Shown here one piece after another: positions 99 to 47,933 of a stretch of DNA of 64,000 bases (within the stretch, counting starts at the first letter, position 1; each line of letters opens with the position of its first letter). The translations under genes were made by a program, and so were the position numbers. The stretch comes from a phage, in sequence record PZ445448.1; one strand, given 5' to 3'. The notes beneath the pieces are model-generated. The model was not told the DNA's origin, ran no database searches, and worked only from the letters and a program-made list of their open reading frames with translations.

Positions 99-539
99 TT
101 GATCCAAATTAATGCTGTAAAGGATGCTCGGGTTGCGGAAGAGTTGGGAGAGATTTACGATTGCCCGTGGCATGTAGAGAATCCTGTAGGGGTTATGTCC
201 ACACTGTGGCGAAAACCTGATTACCGTTTTCATCCTTCGGATTATGGTGGGTATTTACCGGAGGATGATGTAAACCCCTGGTTTCCTGAATTTATAGCTC
301 CACGTGATGCCTATCCAAAAATAACTTGCGGCTGGATAGGCAATGGATTTATAATCCCGGCCACAAAACCTGTCCCGCAAATAGTTGACGCGGTTAGCGG
401 GTATTCCATGCAACACGCCAAGCTGGGTGGAAAGAGTGCAAGAACGAAGATGATCCGAAGCCTCACGCCACGTGGCTGGGCAAAAGCCGTATTCTTAGCA
501 AACGAGCCTGTAGTAAGGAGCAGAATTAATGGGAAGTAA
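99..539 (+). CDS. hypothetical protein
   Basis: 146-aa ORF ending 11 nt into primase-helicase start; no recognisable motif; may extend upstream of window. Confidence 0.35.
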   Translation: MIQINAVKDARVAEELGEIYDCPWHVENPVGVMSTLWRKPDYRFHPSDYGGYLPEDDVNPWFPEFIAPRDAYPKITCGWIGNGFIIPATKPVPQIVDAVSGYSMQHAKLGGKSARTKMIRSLTPRGWAKAVFLANEPVVRSRINGK

Positions 540-2607
540 ATTTATGGCATCTGCATACAACCGTTTCGGTGAGCCAAACCCGAAAGCAACTAAGTATAAA
601 AGTGGGGGAAGTGTGAAACGAGACTATCGTGATGAAAAAGAGGTTGAAACTGTAGAGACTGTTTTAGAAAATACTAAAATTGTCCCTGTCCCACAACAAA
701 ATATCGGTCTGATGGCTGCACAATATTTTGGTGTGCGATCAGCATTGTCACAAGAAGACGGTGTGACAGTCACTGCAACATATTTCCCATATTACGACCG
801 CTACGGAAATCTGTCCGGTTTCAAAAAGCGTGACTGGACTATTCCTAAAGAACAAAGGGGCCACTTCTCCGTTGTTGGCATCGTAAAGGCCAACTCCCAG
901 ATGTTTGGTCAAAAGCTGTGTGCATCTTCCAACAACCGTAAGCAGATTAACGTTTGTGAGGGAGAAGGTGATGTTATTGCAGCATGGCAGGCTGCATATC
1001 AGATACAAGTAAAAGGGATTCTCACCAACGCTAAAGCCCCGGCAAAGGTGAAGCAGTGGGCTAAAGAGGTCCAGGACGGGATCGACGCAGTTATCAACGG
1101 TGGTGATCTGGCAGGAAAACCCTGCCTGCCTTTTGTTGGAATTAACTGTGGATGTGCAAACGCAGTAGATACTTTTGCAAACAATGAGAAGTTTATCCGT
1201 AGCTATGGAACAGTTGTGCTGGCAATGGATAACGATGCAGCTAACGAGGTAGAGAAGCAAAAACACGTCATTAAAGGTGTTGAGGCCACGCACAATATCG
1301 CAGCATTTTTGATGGCTGATAACGTTTACCACGTAGAATACCCTGGTGAAGTAAATGACCCTGACGGGGTAAAAGATATCCGTGACATGCTGAAGGCTAA
1401 AAAGCTGGAAGATATTGTCAACATGTTCCGGCACCCTGTTAAATATGTGCCTGATGCTGTGTCGGATTTAGAAGACTTCTCTATCGAGTCTTTGCGGAAA
1501 AAGACTTCCAACGGGGTAGATATCAGCGCAGAGTTCCCAAAACTGCAAAAAATGCTAAAAGGCTTGCACAAAGGGACACTCGTAATGCTTACAGGGCCAT
1601 CAGGGGGCGGTAAAACAACTGTAGCTAAAAAACTGGAACATTGTATTGCAAGATACCTAATGGACCCGACATGCCCGAAGGCTGATGACTATGAAGAGGA
1701 TGATCGTCTATGTATGATCCATCTTGAGGAGGACCCAGAGGAAGCAATTAACTCCTTGTATGCAAACCAGTTAGGGTTTGATGTTAAAGAGTTTGTTGAA
1801 GATCCTAGCCAGTTTTTAACTGATCAAGAACACGCAGAGATTCACCAATCATGGGCAAAAGCTGGAAAAATCAAAGTGTTCAAACATTTCGGATCTATTC
1901 CGGTGGACGAGTTGATTACCAAGCTTAAGCAAATGGTTTGCCTGTACCATTGCCGTTATATTGTGCTGGATCACCTGTCCATGGTAATTTCAGGGCTTAA
2001 TGTTAAGGATGAGCGAAAAGAACTGGACATGGCTATGACTCAGCTGGCTGCGTTTTGTAAGCAGTTTAACGTGTTTATCTTGGTGATCGCTCACCTCAAA
2101 CGTACAGAGATTGTGCCTCCTAAGGACAAGGATGGTAACCCGTTACCTTTCTGGTATCCTGTGCGAAAAGAGAATTTGCGAGGATCGGCGGGGCTTGAAC
2201 AGTTGAGTTGGGTAGTCATAGGTGTCGAGGCCGAAGAAATGGTGGATCGTTCTCGTGGACGTGTCCGTCTGGTAGGTCTTAAAAACCGTCCAGCAAAAAC
2301 TCTAGGTATTGCTGACACTTTGGTTATGGACCCGCACACAGGTAAGTTCCATGATGCCAGTAATTGGTACTGGGACAAAGAAATGCAAATGTTTACAGAC
2401 GGAGAAGGTGGGGAGGTTGTTTGGAGACCTCAGGCTATGTTTGAGGATCAGGAGCATGCAGTTGTAGAAACACCTATGGGCAAGGTTGTGGCTGATAAGG
2501 TTGTAACTCCTACTGTTAAGCCTGTTGACACGCAGGAAGACCTCCAGTACGATGATCCATCCTCTGACCCGGTCCCTGGTTTTGAGGATGATGAAACGCC
2601 TTTTTAA
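529..2607 (+). CDS. DNA primase-helicase (TOPRIM + DnaB/T7 gp4-like helicase)
   Basis: TOPRIM-like CEGEGD and MDNDAANE; Walker A GPSGGGKTT; Walker B IVLDHLS; acidic C-terminus ending ...EDDETPF. Confidence 0.8.
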   Translation: MGSKFMASAYNRFGEPNPKATKYKSGGSVKRDYRDEKEVETVETVLENTKIVPVPQQNIGLMAAQYFGVRSALSQEDGVTVTATYFPYYDRYGNLSGFKKRDWTIPKEQRGHFSVVGIVKANSQMFGQKLCASSNNRKQINVCEGEGDVIAAWQAAYQIQVKGILTNAKAPAKVKQWAKEVQDGIDAVINGGDLAGKPCLPFVGINCGCANAVDTFANNEKFIRSYGTVVLAMDNDAANEVEKQKHVIKGVEATHNIAAFLMADNVYHVEYPGEVNDPDGVKDIRDMLKAKKLEDIVNMFRHPVKYVPDAVSDLEDFSIESLRKKTSNGVDISAEFPKLQKMLKGLHKGTLVMLTGPSGGGKTTVAKKLEHCIARYLMDPTCPKADDYEEDDRLCMIHLEEDPEEAINSLYANQLGFDVKEFVEDPSQFLTDQEHAEIHQSWAKAGKIKVFKHFGSIPVDELITKLKQMVCLYHCRYIVLDHLSMVISGLNVKDERKELDMAMTQLAAFCKQFNVFILVIAHLKRTEIVPPKDKDGNPLPFWYPVRKENLRGSAGLEQLSWVVIGVEAEEMVDRSRGRVRLVGLKNRPAKTLGIADTLVMDPHTGKFHDASNWYWDKEMQMFTDGEGGEVVWRPQAMFEDQEHAVVETPMGKVVADKVVTPTVKPVDTQEDLQYDDPSSDPVPGFEDDETPF

Positions 2608-2669: not shown

Positions 2670-5093
2670 ATGAGTATGTGGAATTTTGACTTTGAGGCCT
2701 CAGGTCTTCTGGACGAGGAAGATCTTTACTACCATTGTGGCCTGTTTAAAGAGTTGAATAAAAATAATTTTATGTTGTTTTTGCCTATCAATGATAGATC
2801 TCATTACAGTGAAGAGGAGGTTGAAAAAGCAAAACAATTTATGCTGGCAAAGCAAGATATCTATCCTAGCTGCTCTGTCCGTATTGCGGATTTCAGCCAG
2901 CTTGAATGGTGGTTAACCGGGAACTCCGATTGGTCACCCACATCATTAAGTTGTCACAACTGTTTTAGTTATGACTTTATCTTGATGGAGAAGCTGTCTG
3001 GTATTCATTTTGATATGTTCCGTGATCCCAAGTGTATGGGGACAATCAATAATCATCAGGTGAACCTGTTCGACACTCTGCCAATGAGTCGTATACTATG
3101 GCCCGACAGACCGTTACCTAAAGGATGCCCTGATTCTGTATACAATCCTGTTACAAAACGTATGCAGCAGGTAGGTCCTCATGGCCTAATGGCGTGGGGG
3201 TACGCTTTAGGAAACCAGAAGGTTAAAATTGATGACTGGAGAAATTTACCTCTGTGGAAGTATGTTGATCGTGTATTCGAGGACGTTATCATCCAGGAGC
3301 TGCTCTGGAAAGAGCTGGTAGCGGAATCAAAAGGTGTATTCTACGGCAAATCTGACATGCAGAACTTTATGTACGATCCAGCCAAAGAGAAGCCGAAAGG
3401 GTTCAAGAAGATTACCTGGAAGAATGCATTACGCCGAGGCATGCTGCAGCATTTCCTGATGGAGCTGCAGGCTCGACAGGGTGTGTATTTCGACATAGAT
3501 GGGGCTATTGCTTTACGTGACCGCTGCGATGCGTGGATGAAAGAGATCGCTGATCGTGTTGAACCACAACTTCCTTTAAAAGAGTTATCAATGTCTCAGC
3601 GGCCTAAGTTCCCTGAAAAGCCGTTTAACCAGGATGGGACAATCTCCAATAATGGTTGGAAATGGTTAAAAGACAAGCTTGGCTACCCTGTGGACATGAG
3701 TGCTTTAGAATTCAAAGCTCCTCCTAAGCGAGCATTTACCTCCACAGGAGATGTCAGTAAGATGGGGATAAAATGGTGTGAAGAGATGGGCTGTAAAGAC
3801 CCTGATAAGATGGCGGATTTCTTGAGGGGCTATATCAAGGGCACCTCCACACCACAACCTTTACCTAAAGAGCTAATGGATCAGGCAATAAGTGATCTAC
3901 AGCAGAAGCGAATGCCTGACTGCAAGATACCTATGAAAATCAGCAATCAGGACGATATTAAGCGATACCTGATCAGTGCTGGTTGGCTTCCGACAATGTG
4001 GAGAACTAAGGATGTAACTAAAGACAGCAAGAAGAAAGCTCTACCTGATGCAGATGTTGATGCACGAGTGTATGCATATATGGACGAGCTTTTAGAGTCA
4101 GAGTATTGTGACCTAATTATCAACTTCTGGAACAAAACTGATGCTAAGTTCCAGACAACCGTGCACAAGTTCCGAAGCTTTCCTAACTCCGAAAGGATTA
4201 AAAAGGAAGTATTCGGGAAAATACGTAGAAAAGCTAGGGCACTTATTACTTCTCCGCAACTGAAAGATACGTTTGGACACCTATGCCCGAATCTTGAAAA
4301 ATTGAACGGAGAGATGGCTAAAGATATCGTCTTGTGGTTATCATTGCGAAACCGCAGATCGGTCCTTGATCCAATCAAGGAGGATAAGGTTGATACTGGT
4401 CTTCTTAATCACCCACGTTTGAAGATTGACCATAAGCTTCCTGCTAAAAGTTCTGGATTAACAAACACTTCCCGACAGAAACATAGTATTTGTGCAAACA
4501 TGCCTAAACCATCTCCTAAAGTGGTTATGGGTAAAGAGATGCGTAGTCTGTGGGGTGTTCCTCCAGGATACTTTGAGATCGGTATTGACGGGTCCAACTT
4601 AGAGCAGCTTATCGGGGCTTGGGGTGCCTTTGAGTTCGACAACGGCCTGTATTACGATGTTGTAAGTAACGGGGACGCACACCAAAACAATGCTGAGGCA
4701 TATACAAAAGTAGCAGGTAGAGAGGTGTCTCGTAACGACGGTAAACCTATCACGTATGGGGTTATGTATGGGGCACAAAAAGATAAAGTTGCAGATATGC
4801 TGGACATCTCTCCAGAGTTGGGACAAAGGGTAATCGATGCACTCTGGGATGCCAACCCTGGTCTTAAGGGGCGTAAAGAAGATCTGGAGAAATTCTGGGA
4901 AGCAACGGGTAAGAAGTTTATCTACTCTTTTGATGGTCATGCTATCTGGACCCGATCTAAACACTCTTTACTTAATGCATACCAACAAAATGGCGGCGCA
5001 TCGTTGTGTGACTTAGTTGGGATACTCATGCACCATCAAATGGTGAAGCGTGGGTGGTACGATGAAGGTGTTCGTCGTATTATCTATTACCAT
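2670..5093 (+). CDS. DNA polymerase, family A, exon 1 (3'-5' exo + polymerase motifs, ends before motif C)
   Basis: N-terminal FDFEASGL (DnaQ-like Exo I); motif B-like KPITYGVMYGAQ; ORF stops one codon after ...RRIIYYH; SD aaggag upstream. Confidence 0.8.
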
Positions 5094-5935
5094 AAATAAC
5101 ATTGTGGCTTCGTGCAGTGATGCACGTCGAAAACCTCTTTAATTGACGGGAAGGCTAAGTTGACTTTTACACCTAAACATGGTAAAAGCTCAATATGCTA
5201 ATCCGCAGCGAAGACTAAAGGGGTGTAGTTAAAATGGCTAGATCAGTTGAGTATCACGGATATACCGTGTTTGATGATGGAACAATACCTTTATCGAAAC
5301 GTGATCATACAACAATGTTTTGTTTTGATAATGGTCGAGGTTACCTTTGCGTAACCATGTTCATCGAGGGGAAGCAGTGCACAAAAGGTGTCCACCACTT
5401 GGTTGCTGAATGCTTTGTATCAAACCCTGATCCTGAAAGGCTCACATGGGTGAACCATAAGGACGGAAACAAATACAACAATGCATACTGGAACCTTGAA
5501 TGGACCACCCCTGGTGGAAATATCAAACACGCTTATGATAATGACCTCAGAGTAAGGCCAGTCGGTGAGTATAATGCCAACGCTGTACTGACCGAGGATG
5601 AGGTAACGGAGATTTGCGAACTGTTACAAAGTGGTTTACGACAATGCGAGATTAGGGATCTTGGGTATCCTTATGAGACGGTCAGAGCCATAAAGCAAAG
5701 AAGACAGTGGAAACATATCTCTAAAAACTACACCTGGTAGTAACGTTCAGAGACTATCGAAAGCATAGCGCCAACATAAATTGGTGCGAAGAAGCGAGTA
5801 GAGTAGACCAGCAAGTGCGGTCGAAATGGGAGGTGCCTTGGTAACAAGGTAGTGAGATAGTCCGATCCATACAGGAAACTGTATGGCTGTGCACGTAATG
5901 GTGCGGGGTAGCTTAACGACCTACCTGAACTATTG
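5094..5935 (+). mobile_element. putative group I intron with HNH homing endonuclease ORF, inserted at polymerase motif C
   Basis: Exon ends in U (5093), insert ends in G (5935); GACUA and UAGUC strings in 3' part; flanking ORFs rejoin in frame as YYH|DEYQ. Confidence 0.6.
5234..5740 (+). CDS. HNH homing endonuclease
   Basis: HHLVAECF...VNHKDGNKYNNAYWNLEW HNH motif; lies inside the insert splitting the polymerase gene. Confidence 0.75.
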   Translation: MARSVEYHGYTVFDDGTIPLSKRDHTTMFCFDNGRGYLCVTMFIEGKQCTKGVHHLVAECFVSNPDPERLTWVNHKDGNKYNNAYWNLEWTTPGGNIKHAYDNDLRVRPVGEYNANAVLTEDEVTEICELLQSGLRQCEIRDLGYPYETVRAIKQRRQWKHISKNYTW

Positions 5936-6289
5936 GATGAGTACCAACTTCAAGTCCCTGACACACCGAAGTATAAGACTGTGTACACCTTCGACACAAT
6001 CGAAGAACTGGAAGCATTTAAGGCAGAGCAGGAGGCCAAACTTCATGTGTTCGACGGTCATAAGTACAAAAAGGCACGCAAGGATGAGGACGGAAACGAA
6101 GTGGTTGACAGAGACGGAAACACGGTGTACGATCCTATCCTGAACGATGACGGAAAGCTTGAACTTATCTGGAGCCCTGTGGGTGAAATGGTGGTGCATT
6201 GCTTCTGGCAAGCTTCTAAAATGATGGGCGTCCCGTTCCAGATCACGGGTGAATACCTGTGTGGTCGTAATTGGGGTGATTGTCACTAA
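5936..6289 (+). CDS. DNA polymerase, family A, exon 2 (motif C to C-terminus)
   Basis: Begins DEYQ (completing HDE motif C after splice), ends ...GRNWGDCH like T7 polymerase C-terminus; no ATG or SD of its own. Confidence 0.65.
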   Translation, partial: DEYQLQVPDTPKYKTVYTFDTIEELEAFKAEQEAKLHVFDGHKYKKARKDEDGNEVVDRDGNTVYDPILNDDGKLELIWSPVGEMVVHCFWQASKMMGVPFQITGEYLCGRNWGDCH

Positions 6290-9102: not shown

Positions 9103-9471
9103 ATGGAACAAATGAACGATCAAGAGTCGGTTGCGATGAACGAGCAAGAACAACCTCAAGAATTTTTCTTAGGGTTAAGTAAAGATCAAGTGTCTCTTTT
9201 GCTAGTGCTTTCTTCTTTCATGGGAAGACTTCAGGAGCTCACACAACAACCGGAGGCTGAACAATTATTTCAGGCTCTGCGTGAAGAAGAAAAATATCGT
9301 CGTTTGGACTATGCCTTAGGTTGGGTAGCTCAACAACGAGATATGCTGATGGCCCTCTCTGGGACCACAAGTTTTGCAATGGGCCTGTTGGCTCAAGTTC
9401 AGGACAAATTAATTCAAGCAGGGTTTGCACACACGGCAAACACTAACGAAGAACAAGGAGACAAAGAATGA
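9103..9471 (+). CDS. hypothetical protein
   Basis: 122-aa ORF; SD ggagattcc. Confidence 0.5.
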   Translation: MEQMNDQESVAMNEQEQPQEFFLGLSKDQVSLLLVLSSFMGRLQELTQQPEAEQLFQALREEEKYRRLDYALGWVAQQRDMLMALSGTTSFAMGLLAQVQDKLIQAGFAHTANTNEEQGDKE

Positions 9472-10694
9472 GCGTTATTCAACAATTCGCTAACCCGATG
9501 AATCCGCGTGAAACTGTTTTACTGGCTCACGGCATGATTAAACGCGTCAGCATCAAGCCTATCAAAGGTGCTGATCCTACAACAGGTATTAAAACCACTG
9601 TGTGGCAAGGTAAGAAAATTGAATCCAGCCACACCATCTCTTTACTGATTTCTGAACTGGATTCCTCTGATAACCTACTTCAAGGTGGTGAAGAAGTTTG
9701 GATCAGTATGGGCGATAAGCTGCTTAAACCGGGTCATCAAGACTCTGTCTCTGTTAAAATTGATGACAAGTGGGAAACCGTAACGCCAGGATGGATCGTA
9801 AATATCCCTTTGAAGGCAAACGAGCATAACGGTAAGACCTACTACAAAGGCTCACTGGCTAAGATGGTTAAGCTGGGTGCAGGAGAGGCTCCAGCAGCGA
9901 CTCAGCAGCAAAAACAGCAACAAGGTGCACAATCACAAGGCCAGAAGCAGAAACCTCAGCAGAATGCCAATCAGGACGTTTTACGCATCTATGGTGATGT
10001 GACTCAGATTGTTGGCAACGTGGTTACTGTAAATGATCACAAGATTGGCGAAGGTGCTATGGTTGTAACTGATGAGCAGCTTAAAGACCTGGTGGTAGGT
10101 GGTCGTGTTGCAGCCATTGTGGACAAAGACACCGGAAACATTATCAGTGGTTTCAAAGCCTACCCACCTAAGGCAGAGAACGGCACTCAAGGCCCTGGTG
10201 GCAAGCGTAAATCCTCTTACGACCCTATTGGTGTGGAGACGGGGCATAGCATCAATGCGTTGCAGATCATCCTGGATCGTGGGTTTAAGGTAGACGACCC
10301 ACTAGGCGTGGCTAAAACACTGCACGTAGTCACCATCGAGCTTAAGAAAGAGTATGCTCAAGCCACCAACCGAACTGAAGATGAAGTAGGTGCCAGTGTC
10401 GGTAATGCGGTGTTGAACGCTTGTCGCCGTATTGACAAGAAAACGAAAGTTGATGATTTTGCAGCGGCAATTACTGCAGAAGCAAAAGATGTCTTGACTA
10501 ATCTGGCTGAGCCGTTGTACGATTGGATCAAGAACGGTGCTGGGTCAACTGACCATCAAGAACCTCAGGCTGCCAAACAGGAAGCAGCTCCACAGCAAAA
10601 CACTGTAGACGCTCCTCCTGTAAATGATGGGGAAGATGACCCGATGGATCAGAATCCAGCACAGTATGACTTCTGTGATGACATACCGTTTTAA
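9468..10694 (+). CDS. putative ssDNA-binding protein with SSB-like acidic C-terminal tail
   Basis: 408 aa; Q-rich linker (QQQKQQQGAQSQGQKQKPQQ); C-terminus ...YDFCDDIPF resembling E. coli SSB tip DDDIPF. Confidence 0.45.
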   Translation: MSVIQQFANPMNPRETVLLAHGMIKRVSIKPIKGADPTTGIKTTVWQGKKIESSHTISLLISELDSSDNLLQGGEEVWISMGDKLLKPGHQDSVSVKIDDKWETVTPGWIVNIPLKANEHNGKTYYKGSLAKMVKLGAGEAPAATQQQKQQQGAQSQGQKQKPQQNANQDVLRIYGDVTQIVGNVVTVNDHKIGEGAMVVTDEQLKDLVVGGRVAAIVDKDTGNIISGFKAYPPKAENGTQGPGGKRKSSYDPIGVETGHSINALQIILDRGFKVDDPLGVAKTLHVVTIELKKEYAQATNRTEDEVGASVGNAVLNACRRIDKKTKVDDFAAAITAEAKDVLTNLAEPLYDWIKNGAGSTDHQEPQAAKQEAAPQQNTVDAPPVNDGEDDPMDQNPAQYDFCDDIPF

Positions 10695-10705
10695 CAATTA
10701 GTTAA

Positions 10706-10738
10706 CATAGCCCTGCCCGAAAGGGTGGGGCATTTTTG
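10706..10738 (+). terminator. stem-loop plus T-run after SSB-like gene
   Basis: gccctgcccgaaagggtggggc followed by atttttg. Confidence 0.4.
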
Positions 10739-10756
10739 TATAAGGAGATCTGAAAA

Positions 10757-46805: not shown

Positions 46806-47894
46806 TTAAAACTCCCAAATTTCTTCTTCAGCGTCGTTAACAGTTGTGTTGACGCGGTAGTCAGTGTTCGACATTTCTTGGTTCGCCGTCTGTTGTAATG
46901 AAGGTTTCATCCACACCTGCATAAACGGTAGCGGGTCCTTTGTTGGCGGCACAAAGTCTTTGTCGATGTCGTAGTAATCATAAATCGGTGAGCAGTTATA
47001 GTCAACCCACTCTTTAAGCAACGGTGAGTTAAGACCTATAATCGCTCTTCCTTCGCTGAAAATATAGTCACTCCAACCGTACTCTTTGGTTCGTACTTCA
47101 TCAAGAATCTCTTTTAACTCCCCCTTTATCTCAAGGAAGCTTTTCTCCCATGCGGGATCATTAAGCAAGATATCAATGATGGCAAAATCACCTTTCGAAT
47201 GTAGCATTTCGTCAAGCATGATTTTTTGAACAAGCTGCGCCACCTGAACAAAGATACCCTGTTCAGCTACTGCGAAAGTGCATGCAAAACTTGCAATAAA
47301 CTCAATACTTTCCAGAGCTAAAAGCGCAAAAAGCGCTCTAAGAATGCATTTCCGCACAATATCTTCTTCAACACTAGAAGGATCCAGGCGGTATTTTGCA
47401 CCAATAACCTCAAGCTCTTGCATGTATTTGACAATAACGCCGGATCTGCTCAGAACGTTTTGGTTTTCCTGAATCTCTTCTATAATCTCACGGGCATTGG
47501 GGAGGCATTGTCTAACAATCTCTGAGTAAGTTAGTGCGTGAAGAACTTCAATCTCTGACTGTTTCATCAATAGAGTGAAAAGCTCACTATTAGTGATGAA
47601 TGGTGAAAAGAGGCAGATGATCGATCTTGCCGCAACGCTATCAGCCTCCCATTGCCACATCAAGGTCTGCACCATCACGTCATAAGTTGACTTTGAGCAT
47701 GTTACAAAATCTGAAATAGATTGCGACAAATCCACTTCATCCTCTGCCCAATCTTGCTCTTTTTGTTTTTTGTATAGTTCAAACAGTTGTGGATATTTTT
47801 TGTTGATAGAGTCGTACATACCCATTTGCTGTCCCAGAAACAGCGGATAGTCACCAGTTTTATGAGCGGTGTTCTCAGCATTAAATACAGCCAT
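46806..47894 (-). CDS. nrdB: ribonucleotide reductase class Ia beta subunit
   Basis: Paired E..H ligand motifs (EIEVLHALTYSE, LDEMLHSKGD); acidic C-terminus ...EEEIWEF. Confidence 0.75.
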   Translation of the reverse strand: MAVFNAENTAHKTGDYPLFLGQQMGMYDSINKKYPQLFELYKKQKEQDWAEDEVDLSQSISDFVTCSKSTYDVMVQTLMWQWEADSVAARSIICLFSPFITNSELFTLLMKQSEIEVLHALTYSEIVRQCLPNAREIIEEIQENQNVLSRSGVIVKYMQELEVIGAKYRLDPSSVEEDIVRKCILRALFALLALESIEFIASFACTFAVAEQGIFVQVAQLVQKIMLDEMLHSKGDFAIIDILLNDPAWEKSFLEIKGELKEILDEVRTKEYGWSDYIFSEGRAIIGLNSPLLKEWVDYNCSPIYDYYDIDKDFVPPTKDPLPFMQVWMKPSLQQTANQEMSNTDYRVNTTVNDAEEEIWEF

Positions 47895-47933
47895 TATTCT
47901 ACCTCTAAAATGGGGCCGGAAGCCCCTTTAAAA

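Follow-up and report, generated by a model that had tools for sequence, protein, structure and literature searches.

A non-canonical SSB-like protein of rV5-like phages with a host-type C-terminal tip, and endonuclease cassettes placed at the tip

The SSB-like gene and its C-terminal tip

We analyzed a phage DNA of 64,000 nucleotides (sequence record PZ445448.1), here called the window, in which a gene at 9468..10694 is likely to encode the replicative SSB (the protein that binds single-stranded DNA) of an rV5-like phage, a member of the non-canonical family PHROG 4477. Coordinates are positions in the whole window, and the gene lies on its + strand. The coding sequence specifies 408 residues followed by a stop codon, and the protein matched phrog_4477 over its full length (residues 1-408, E=5e-173), a group that is listed as having "unknown function". 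Orthologues include Bas52_0087, isim_41 and FFH2 ORF193. Many Vequintavirus (rV5-like) genomes were 96-98% identical to this region, and in nearly all matching records the gene was annotated as hypothetical; phage JLBYU08 was the exception ("putative single-stranded DNA-binding protein"), and homologues were also labelled SSB in several phages from other genera. The rV5-like phages are common candidates for therapy and biocontrol, with most of their genes unannotated, and a phage SSB at this locus would fill a missing component of their T7-like replisome. A clear intrinsic terminator was found directly 3' of the stop codon (10710-10731; 10710..10741 as the mapped feature, +). A hidden read-through extension of the C terminus in the window phage was also considered and was ruled out, as the terminator follows the stop codon immediately.

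An earlier note, made from the DNA letters alone, had described a 408-residue protein with a Q-rich linker and a DFCDDIPF end, and translation of the open reading frame (ORF) agreed with this exactly (C-terminal end ...NPAQYDFCDDIPF, followed by the stop codon). It had also given ...DDDIPF as the terminus of E. coli SSB, which is indeed how the 178-residue PDB chains 1eqq and 4mz9 end (...SNEPPMDFDDDIPF). The tip of the window protein (aa 401-408; 10668..10691, +) shares seven of its eight residues with the C-terminal docking tip of E. coli SSB (SSB-Ct; DFCDDIPF vs DFDDDIPF), with Cys403 instead of Asp, and the E. coli-type SSB tip was the sole match of the family profile among PDB sequences. 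In an alignment of 111 family sequences with a mean column identity of only 18%, P407 was kept in 108 and F408 in 110. We also examined 864 stop-to-stop segments of at least 60 aa from the window and about 100 kb of a sister genome, and only two of them had an acidic stretch followed by a PF end. Since P407 and F408 are conserved and acidic-PF ends are rare among ORF segments, the match of the tip to E. coli SSB is not due to chance. Cys403 itself is a minority variant, Asp being present at this position in 87 of 109 family sequences.

The extent of the family depended on the search: a word-indexed search retrieved 54 relatives and an exhaustive profile search 231 representatives at 50% identity, which define an SSB-like family that is listed as unknown in both Pfam and PHROGs. 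Tip statistics were derived from the 150 listed representatives (no more than 50% identical to each other). An [ILVMA]-P-[FW] end was present in 111 of them, and in 10 more the motif was followed by 1-2 residues or by a specific extension; the remainder were mostly fragments. Overall, roughly 80% of the family had an acidic-[ILV]-P-F end. Among the 116 listed members that ended in P-[FW], the terminal residue was Phe in 111 and position -2 was Ile, Leu or Val in 107, and Asp was most common at positions -3, -4 and -5. Within the last 12 residues, the mean number of acidic residues was 4.8 and that of basic residues 0.1. Several distant members ended in ...(N)EPPMDFDDDIPF, which is identical to host SSB, with the last 11-13 residues in common.

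Tips also varied among close relatives (P0001-P0050) that were otherwise 96-99% identical: the acidic portion differed (DFCDDIPF, AFDDDIPF, SFDDDIPF, EFDDSIPF, WDFEDVPF and WDWDESIPF) and [IV]PF was fixed. Possible sources of this variation are co-conversion tracts of endonuclease homing, immunity of the target site, or selection by host partners or defenses.

Predicted fold and relation to known SSBs

Structure was predicted by AlphaFold2 from two alignments, of 23 and 111 sequences, and both runs gave identical elements; in the 111-sequence run the predicted local distance difference test scores (pLDDT) of the folded domains were 93-98, and the mean pLDDT was 85.7. An OB-fold prediction had been proposed earlier as a check on the SSB assignment, and the all-beta N-terminal domain (aa 1-138; 9468..9881, +) was predicted as an OB fold of the nucleic-acid-binding class, presumably the domain that binds single-stranded DNA (ssDNA). 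Its conserved positions include aromatic residues at 55, 78, 102, 120, 125 and 126 and the basic residues K97 and K123, which may correspond to an ssDNA-binding surface. This domain is followed by a Q-rich linker (approximately aa 139-170; 9882..9977, +) that was disordered in both models (pLDDT from below 50 to about 50) and varied in length across the family; 13 of the 38 residues at 139-176 are Gln. A small second beta domain (aa 171-232; 9978..10163, +) has the order b1-b2-b3-helix-b4-b5 and is OB-like. It was missing from short members of about 270-300 aa, such as P0051-54, and from most representatives; the majority of the 231 were 250-300 aa long and consisted of the OB fold and the helical bundle without the middle domain.

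The four-helix bundle (aa 250-355, with helices at 253-270, 278-300, 304-321 and 328-355; 10215..10532, +) is better conserved across the family than any other module, and most matches had their best profile stretch here. In the 111-sequence alignment G312 was invariant, and at least 84% of the sequences retained G259, G308 and D252; the last of these (codon 10221-10223) was Asp in 93 of 111, whereas Y351 (codon 10518-10520) was variable. The bundle is a putative oligomerization domain. Behind it lies an acidic tail (aa 356-400; 10533..10667, +), predicted as disordered by AlphaFold2, which together with the tip makes up the last 53 residues, with a net charge of -11.

Outside the tail, the protein did not resemble known SSBs in sequence. 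Pfam gave no match, including to PF00436, for the window protein or any of the 111 family members. NCBIfam SSB models (e.g., TIGR00621) were touched by the last ~25 residues of some members, far below the cutoff, and a comparison of the family profile with the OB domain of E. coli SSB by hhalign gave a probability of 0.2%. Because searches of Pfam, NCBIfam and PDB sequences, and hhalign comparisons with the E. coli SSB OB domain and a short phage SSB, matched the tail alone, the window protein is, by sequence comparison, outside the canonical SSB family (PF00436/TIGR00621) and appears SSB-like on a different scaffold. Foldseek returned weak matches to DUF2815/gp2.5-like proteins, RPA and the phage p2 SSB; the gp2.5-type scores were themselves weak (4klk, E=0.028; DUF2815 in BFVD, E=5e-3), and Pfam DUF2815 was not matched. 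One shared motif, EYNGKxY, seemed common to the window family and the SSB of phage morffagbaw and was dropped after a profile comparison gave it a 5% probability.

Like E. coli SSB (PF00436), the window protein combines an OB fold, a disordered low-complexity linker and an acidic tip, such that an SSB-type end, i.e., a disordered linker and then an acidic I-P-F tip, is present. However, E. coli SSB has 178 residues compared to 408, lacks the OB-like second barrel and the four-helix bundle, and tetramerizes through OB-OB contacts, whereas oligomerization of the window protein would presumably involve the helical bundle. T7 gp2.5 and other DUF2815 SSBs share with it a non-canonical phage OB fold and an acidic tail ending in Phe, and T7 likewise has a primase-helicase fusion and a polymerase of family A, its helicase also carrying an acidic, Phe-ending tail; the gp4 tail is comparable to that of gp2.5. 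In the window, too, the Phe-ending tail occurs with T7-type primase-helicase and PolA genes alongside. In contrast, the tip of gp2.5 is ...DGDF rather than the host-type IPF, and the window protein has additional domains. T4 gp32 is also a phage SSB built of modules, one dedicated to self-association and another, acidic and at the C terminus, to contacts with proteins, but its core, an OB fold containing Zn, is unrelated in detail, it has no SSB-Ct motif and its cooperativity comes from an N-terminal peptide instead of a helical bundle. The arrangement of OB and helical/zinc-finger domains seen in RecO was not found in the window protein. What was found is the order of PHROG 4477 and Bas52_0087, namely OB, an optional second OB, four-helix bundle, acidic tail and [ILV]PF tip.

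Endonuclease cassettes at the tip

Many relatives of the window protein had 423 residues instead of 408, and the extra 15 residues (APVGLQYGKSRIHAL) came from the 5' end of a ~640-bp cassette inserted exactly after the Phe codon. The records name the free-standing gene of this cassette either "endonuclease VII" or "homing endonuclease", and the endonuclease ATG was located inside the extension. It was detected in 52 phage records, compared to ~115 Vequintavirus records containing the gene (~45%), including rV5 and several BASEL phages; in phage 10C2, it follows the Phe codon of the tip at L005:2700-3335. The window phage does not have the cassette, whose site would be 10691/10692, between the Phe codon and the terminator.

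Homologous cassettes (L014:1244-1684 and L015:1253-1705) were identified at two other genes, where the endonucleases, which share an N-terminal CxKCG...EFYKH...DGHLNKCKEC module, overlapped the 3' ends. One was the canonical 163-aa ssb of phage morffagbaw (...PPMDFDDDIPF+ASVGLQYGKHRIYAL) and the other the primase-helicase of Seunavirus KE23 (...DDDTPF+APIGLQYANHAIYVL). As the cassettes sit on SSB-like, canonical ssb and primase-helicase genes, DNA coding for the tip appears to be the homing target of the element, irrespective of the gene that carries it. In T4, the homing endonuclease gene segG adjoins gene 32.

The extension may have a role of its own. In the P0047 lineage (L009:11174-11221), an extension (SPVGLQYGKHRVYIL) persisted without an endonuclease gene, with a terminator directly behind it, and the start codon of the endonuclease had been lost through substitutions that leave the SSB reading unchanged. 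A comparison of four alleles showed 3-7 of 9 residues conserved in the SSB frame vs 2-3 of 9 in the endonuclease frame. Although the alleles are very few, this retention and the better conservation in the SSB frame suggest that selection may act on the extension peptide as such.

These observations allow a broader reading, which we put forward tentatively and regard as possible rather than probable, that the SSB-Ct tip is both a target and a currency of mobile DNA, with endonucleases homing on DNA that encodes an acidic-[IT]PF end and stop in any protein. Each insertion would append a conserved capping peptide, A[PS]xGLQYxxHxIYxL, which appears to be selected in the SSB frame. If this is true, capped and free tips would be alternative functional states that alter docking to host SSB partners and DRT10-type sensing, and homing co-conversion could explain how identical tips of host type came to be shared by unrelated proteins of phage replisomes. 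The natural tip variants (free, Cys-containing and endonuclease-capped) provide a ready allelic series for examining whether mimicry of host SSB has a part in replication, in the hijacking of host repair enzymes and in immune sensing.

Replication context, proposed role and alternatives

In the window, the SSB-like gene is located downstream of, and in the same direction as, genes for a T7-type primase-helicase (Toprim and DnaB-like domains; 529..2607, +; phrog_239, 6e-160) and a family-A DNA polymerase. The earlier note had called the primase-helicase adjacent and pointed to its acidic end; the end was found (...FEDDETPF, nt 2581-2604), but the gene is not adjacent, being separated from the SSB-like gene by 6.9 kb and more than 10 ORFs on the upstream side. 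The acidic primase-helicase tail is shared by Vequintavirinae, and the Seunavirus KE23 orthologue ends in ...EDMDDDTPF (L015:1093-1272), whereas distant lineages that have the SSB-like tip lacked it (the primase-helicase ends in ...PNKDF in L006 and in ...PEGSY in L007). In four further lineages, down to ~30% identity, the SSB-like gene was found 0.1-10 kb downstream of Toprim-DnaB and/or DNA_pol_A genes. When E. coli SSB was used as a phmmer query on every ORF of the window and of ~127 kb from the sister phage isim, a search of limited sensitivity, it matched only the tips of the family, and no other SSB was annotated in isim or JLBYU08. The position in the replication module and the lack of another evident SSB fit the replicative SSB of the phage.

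The closest published protein is Bas52_0087 of Escherichia phage RudolfGeigy (QXV84166.1, MZ501102), which occupies the same locus and is identical to the window protein in 403 of 408 residues. The five substitutions are P243S, A369T, G388E, D401S and C403D, so that its tip reads SFDDDIPF instead of DFCDDIPF. A bioRxiv preprint of 30 April 2026 called Bas52_0087 SSB-like on the basis of Phold and AlphaFold2, and predicted that two OB folds and a bundle of four helices are followed by disorder toward the C terminus and by an FDDDIPF "C-tip" (10.64898/2026.04.29.721553). This architecture is the same as that of the window protein, in which aa 171-232 correspond to OB-fold-2. In the same study, Bas52 escape mutants D252V and Y351C evaded the reverse-transcriptase defense DRT10 (UG17), expression of wild-type Bas52_0087 during infection strengthened the defense, and overexpression of SbcB (exonuclease I) weakened it (10.64898/2026.04.29.721553). 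Both D252 and Y351 are present in the window protein. An SSB-like protein with a conserved C-tip is thus already known, as a published inference for a 99%-identical orthologue; our analysis adds the size of the family, the tip statistics, synteny, the failure of canonical SSB models, the Cys403 variant, and the tip-targeting endonuclease with its capping extension. Within the family, genetic evidence for DRT10 triggering comes from Bas52_0087 only. Papers on ApeA, retron Eco2 and DARNA, which mention Vequintavirinae and SSB, did not treat this protein. A growing number of cases point to phage SSBs as common triggers of immune systems in bacteria, as with retron Eco8, DARNA, DRT9 and DRT10, the last through the orthologue Bas52_0087.

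The earlier suggestion of a phage SSB, or a mimic that recruits or titrates host SSB-interacting proteins, is supported by the agreement of architecture, conservation, synteny and the published inference for the orthologue. Our preference for a replicative SSB draws on sequence features, family conservation, gene order and predicted fold, and on the DRT10 and SbcB genetics obtained by others in the orthologue; from these we infer ssDNA binding, oligomerization via the helical bundle and docking of partners at the tip. The N-terminal OB fold would bind ssDNA, probably aided by the small second OB-like barrel, and the conserved four-helix bundle would provide self-association. The long acidic disordered tail would then present DFCDDIPF as a copy of the docking tip, through which the ssDNA-bound protein may recruit, or compete for, proteins with an SSB-Ct pocket such as host exonuclease I (SbcB). 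The T7-like replisome of the phage may be a further client of the tip, because the primase-helicase carries a similar tail. Altered coating or processing of ssDNA in the infected cell could be the signal that sets off DRT10.

Several points weigh against this assignment. Homology to SSBs was limited to the tail in the Pfam, NCBIfam and hhalign searches, and in the window allele Cys replaces the first Asp of the DDD triad. The search for a second SSB was itself limited, consisting of single-sequence phmmer and mostly "hypothetical" annotations without gp32 or gp2.5 profiles. When expressed alone, Bas52_0087 was non-toxic and did not trigger DRT10 (10.64898/2026.04.29.721553). Pockets of the canonical SSB-Ct type enclose the side chain of Phe and hold its alpha-carboxylate on a "basic lip" (PMC10164576); because these pockets anchor the alpha-carboxylate of the terminal Phe, the capped tip should dock poorly, and the phages that carry it are viable.

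Some family members match up to 13 terminal residues of host SSB exactly, the similarity of the OB domains to SSBs is moderate, and SbcB dosage influenced the outcome in the DRT10 study (10.64898/2026.04.29.721553). All three would suit a decoy, i.e., a host-takeover or anti-defense factor, not a replicative SSB, that displays SSB-Ct tips and titrates exonuclease I, RecQ, PriA, RecG and other proteins, with OB domains used for localization or assembly alone. We consider such a decoy quite improbable, given that the replication-module position is kept across distant lineages with no alternative SSB evident among the ORFs and annotations examined, and that the OB domain retains aromatic and basic residues at positions of the kind expected for nucleic-acid binding. 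In addition, pure tip display should not tolerate a cap in 45% of relatives, and a protein that efficiently titrated essential SSB partners would be expected to harm E. coli, which overexpression alone did not do.

The C-terminal Phe of the T7 gp2.5 tail is required to contact the polymerase (preprint 10.64898/2026.02.22.705581), and by analogy a phage-internal role for the tip would be a live alternative, or an addition, to host docking. In its exclusive form, the tip would be a handle with PolA and the primase-helicase as clients, in the way that the acidic, Phe-ending tails of T7 gp2.5 and gp4 contact gp5, and host SSB partners would be irrelevant. Identity to the host tip would then be a side effect, either of convergence or of gene conversion driven by the endonuclease, which would have imported it. 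The T7-type replisome with its fused primase-helicase and family-A polymerase, the similar acidic-TPF tail of the Vequintavirinae primase-helicase and the need for the terminal Phe in gp2.5 are consistent with this, and the endonuclease cassettes behind canonical ssb, SSB-like and primase-helicase tips would offer a route for exchange of tip DNA. Nevertheless we regard the exclusive form as unlikely: distant lineages with the SSB-like tip have not conserved the tail of the primase-helicase, the resemblance of the tip to the host consensus extends to the upstream PPMDF and is far closer than a generic acidic-Phe tail would call for, and SbcB dosage affects a phenotype linked to the SSB-like protein. 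A phage-internal handle is also compatible with a replicative SSB and does not exclude host docking. Least credible, and in our view very improbable, is a function in recombination mediation or in the annealing of single strands (RecO-like or gp2.5-like) in place of a general SSB, for which only generic OB similarity speaks. The matches to RecO ranked no higher than those to dozens of other OB folds, the protein has neither a zinc finger nor a C-terminal domain of the RecO type, RecO binds SSB tips but does not carry one, and a disordered linker with SSB-Ct is the hallmark of an SSB; annealing activity could in any case coexist with SSB function, as in T7 gp2.5.

The SSB-like gene probably is translationally coupled, as its sequence suggests, to a 122-aa ORF (9103..9471, +; phrog_7310, function unassigned) whose stop overlaps the SSB-like start (ATGA). 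A homologue of the C-terminal region of this ORF was located immediately upstream of the SSB-like gene in lineages L008 and L009, but not in L006 and L007, and its product may be a partner of the SSB-like protein; in JLBYU08 it was annotated as "putative SSB", for which our analysis found no supporting evidence. Comparison with PHROGs placed the genes flanking the SSB-like gene in groups without assigned function and gave no functional clue, and promoter-like sites were no more common in the window than in shuffled sequences.

The polymerase is encoded by two ORFs (2670-5099, 809 aa, and 5933-6289, a 118-aa C-terminal fragment; both +), and the gap between them holds a gene for an HNH endonuclease (5234-5740, +). 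The same split was observed in JLBYU08 without the HNH gene, and the distant relative L007 had a contiguous polymerase of 854 aa with the same ...GNSWASCH end motif. Sixteen GenBank records labelled "Campylobacter phage" (MG0656xx, host C. jejuni) were 96-97% identical to E. coli Vequintaviruses across the region, and their host assignment looks doubtful on this sequence similarity. The search for acidic tails ending in Phe found one other long ORF, that of the ribonucleotide reductase beta subunit (~46806-47927, -; ...NDAEEEIWEF), which is probably an ordinary tail that binds the alpha subunit.

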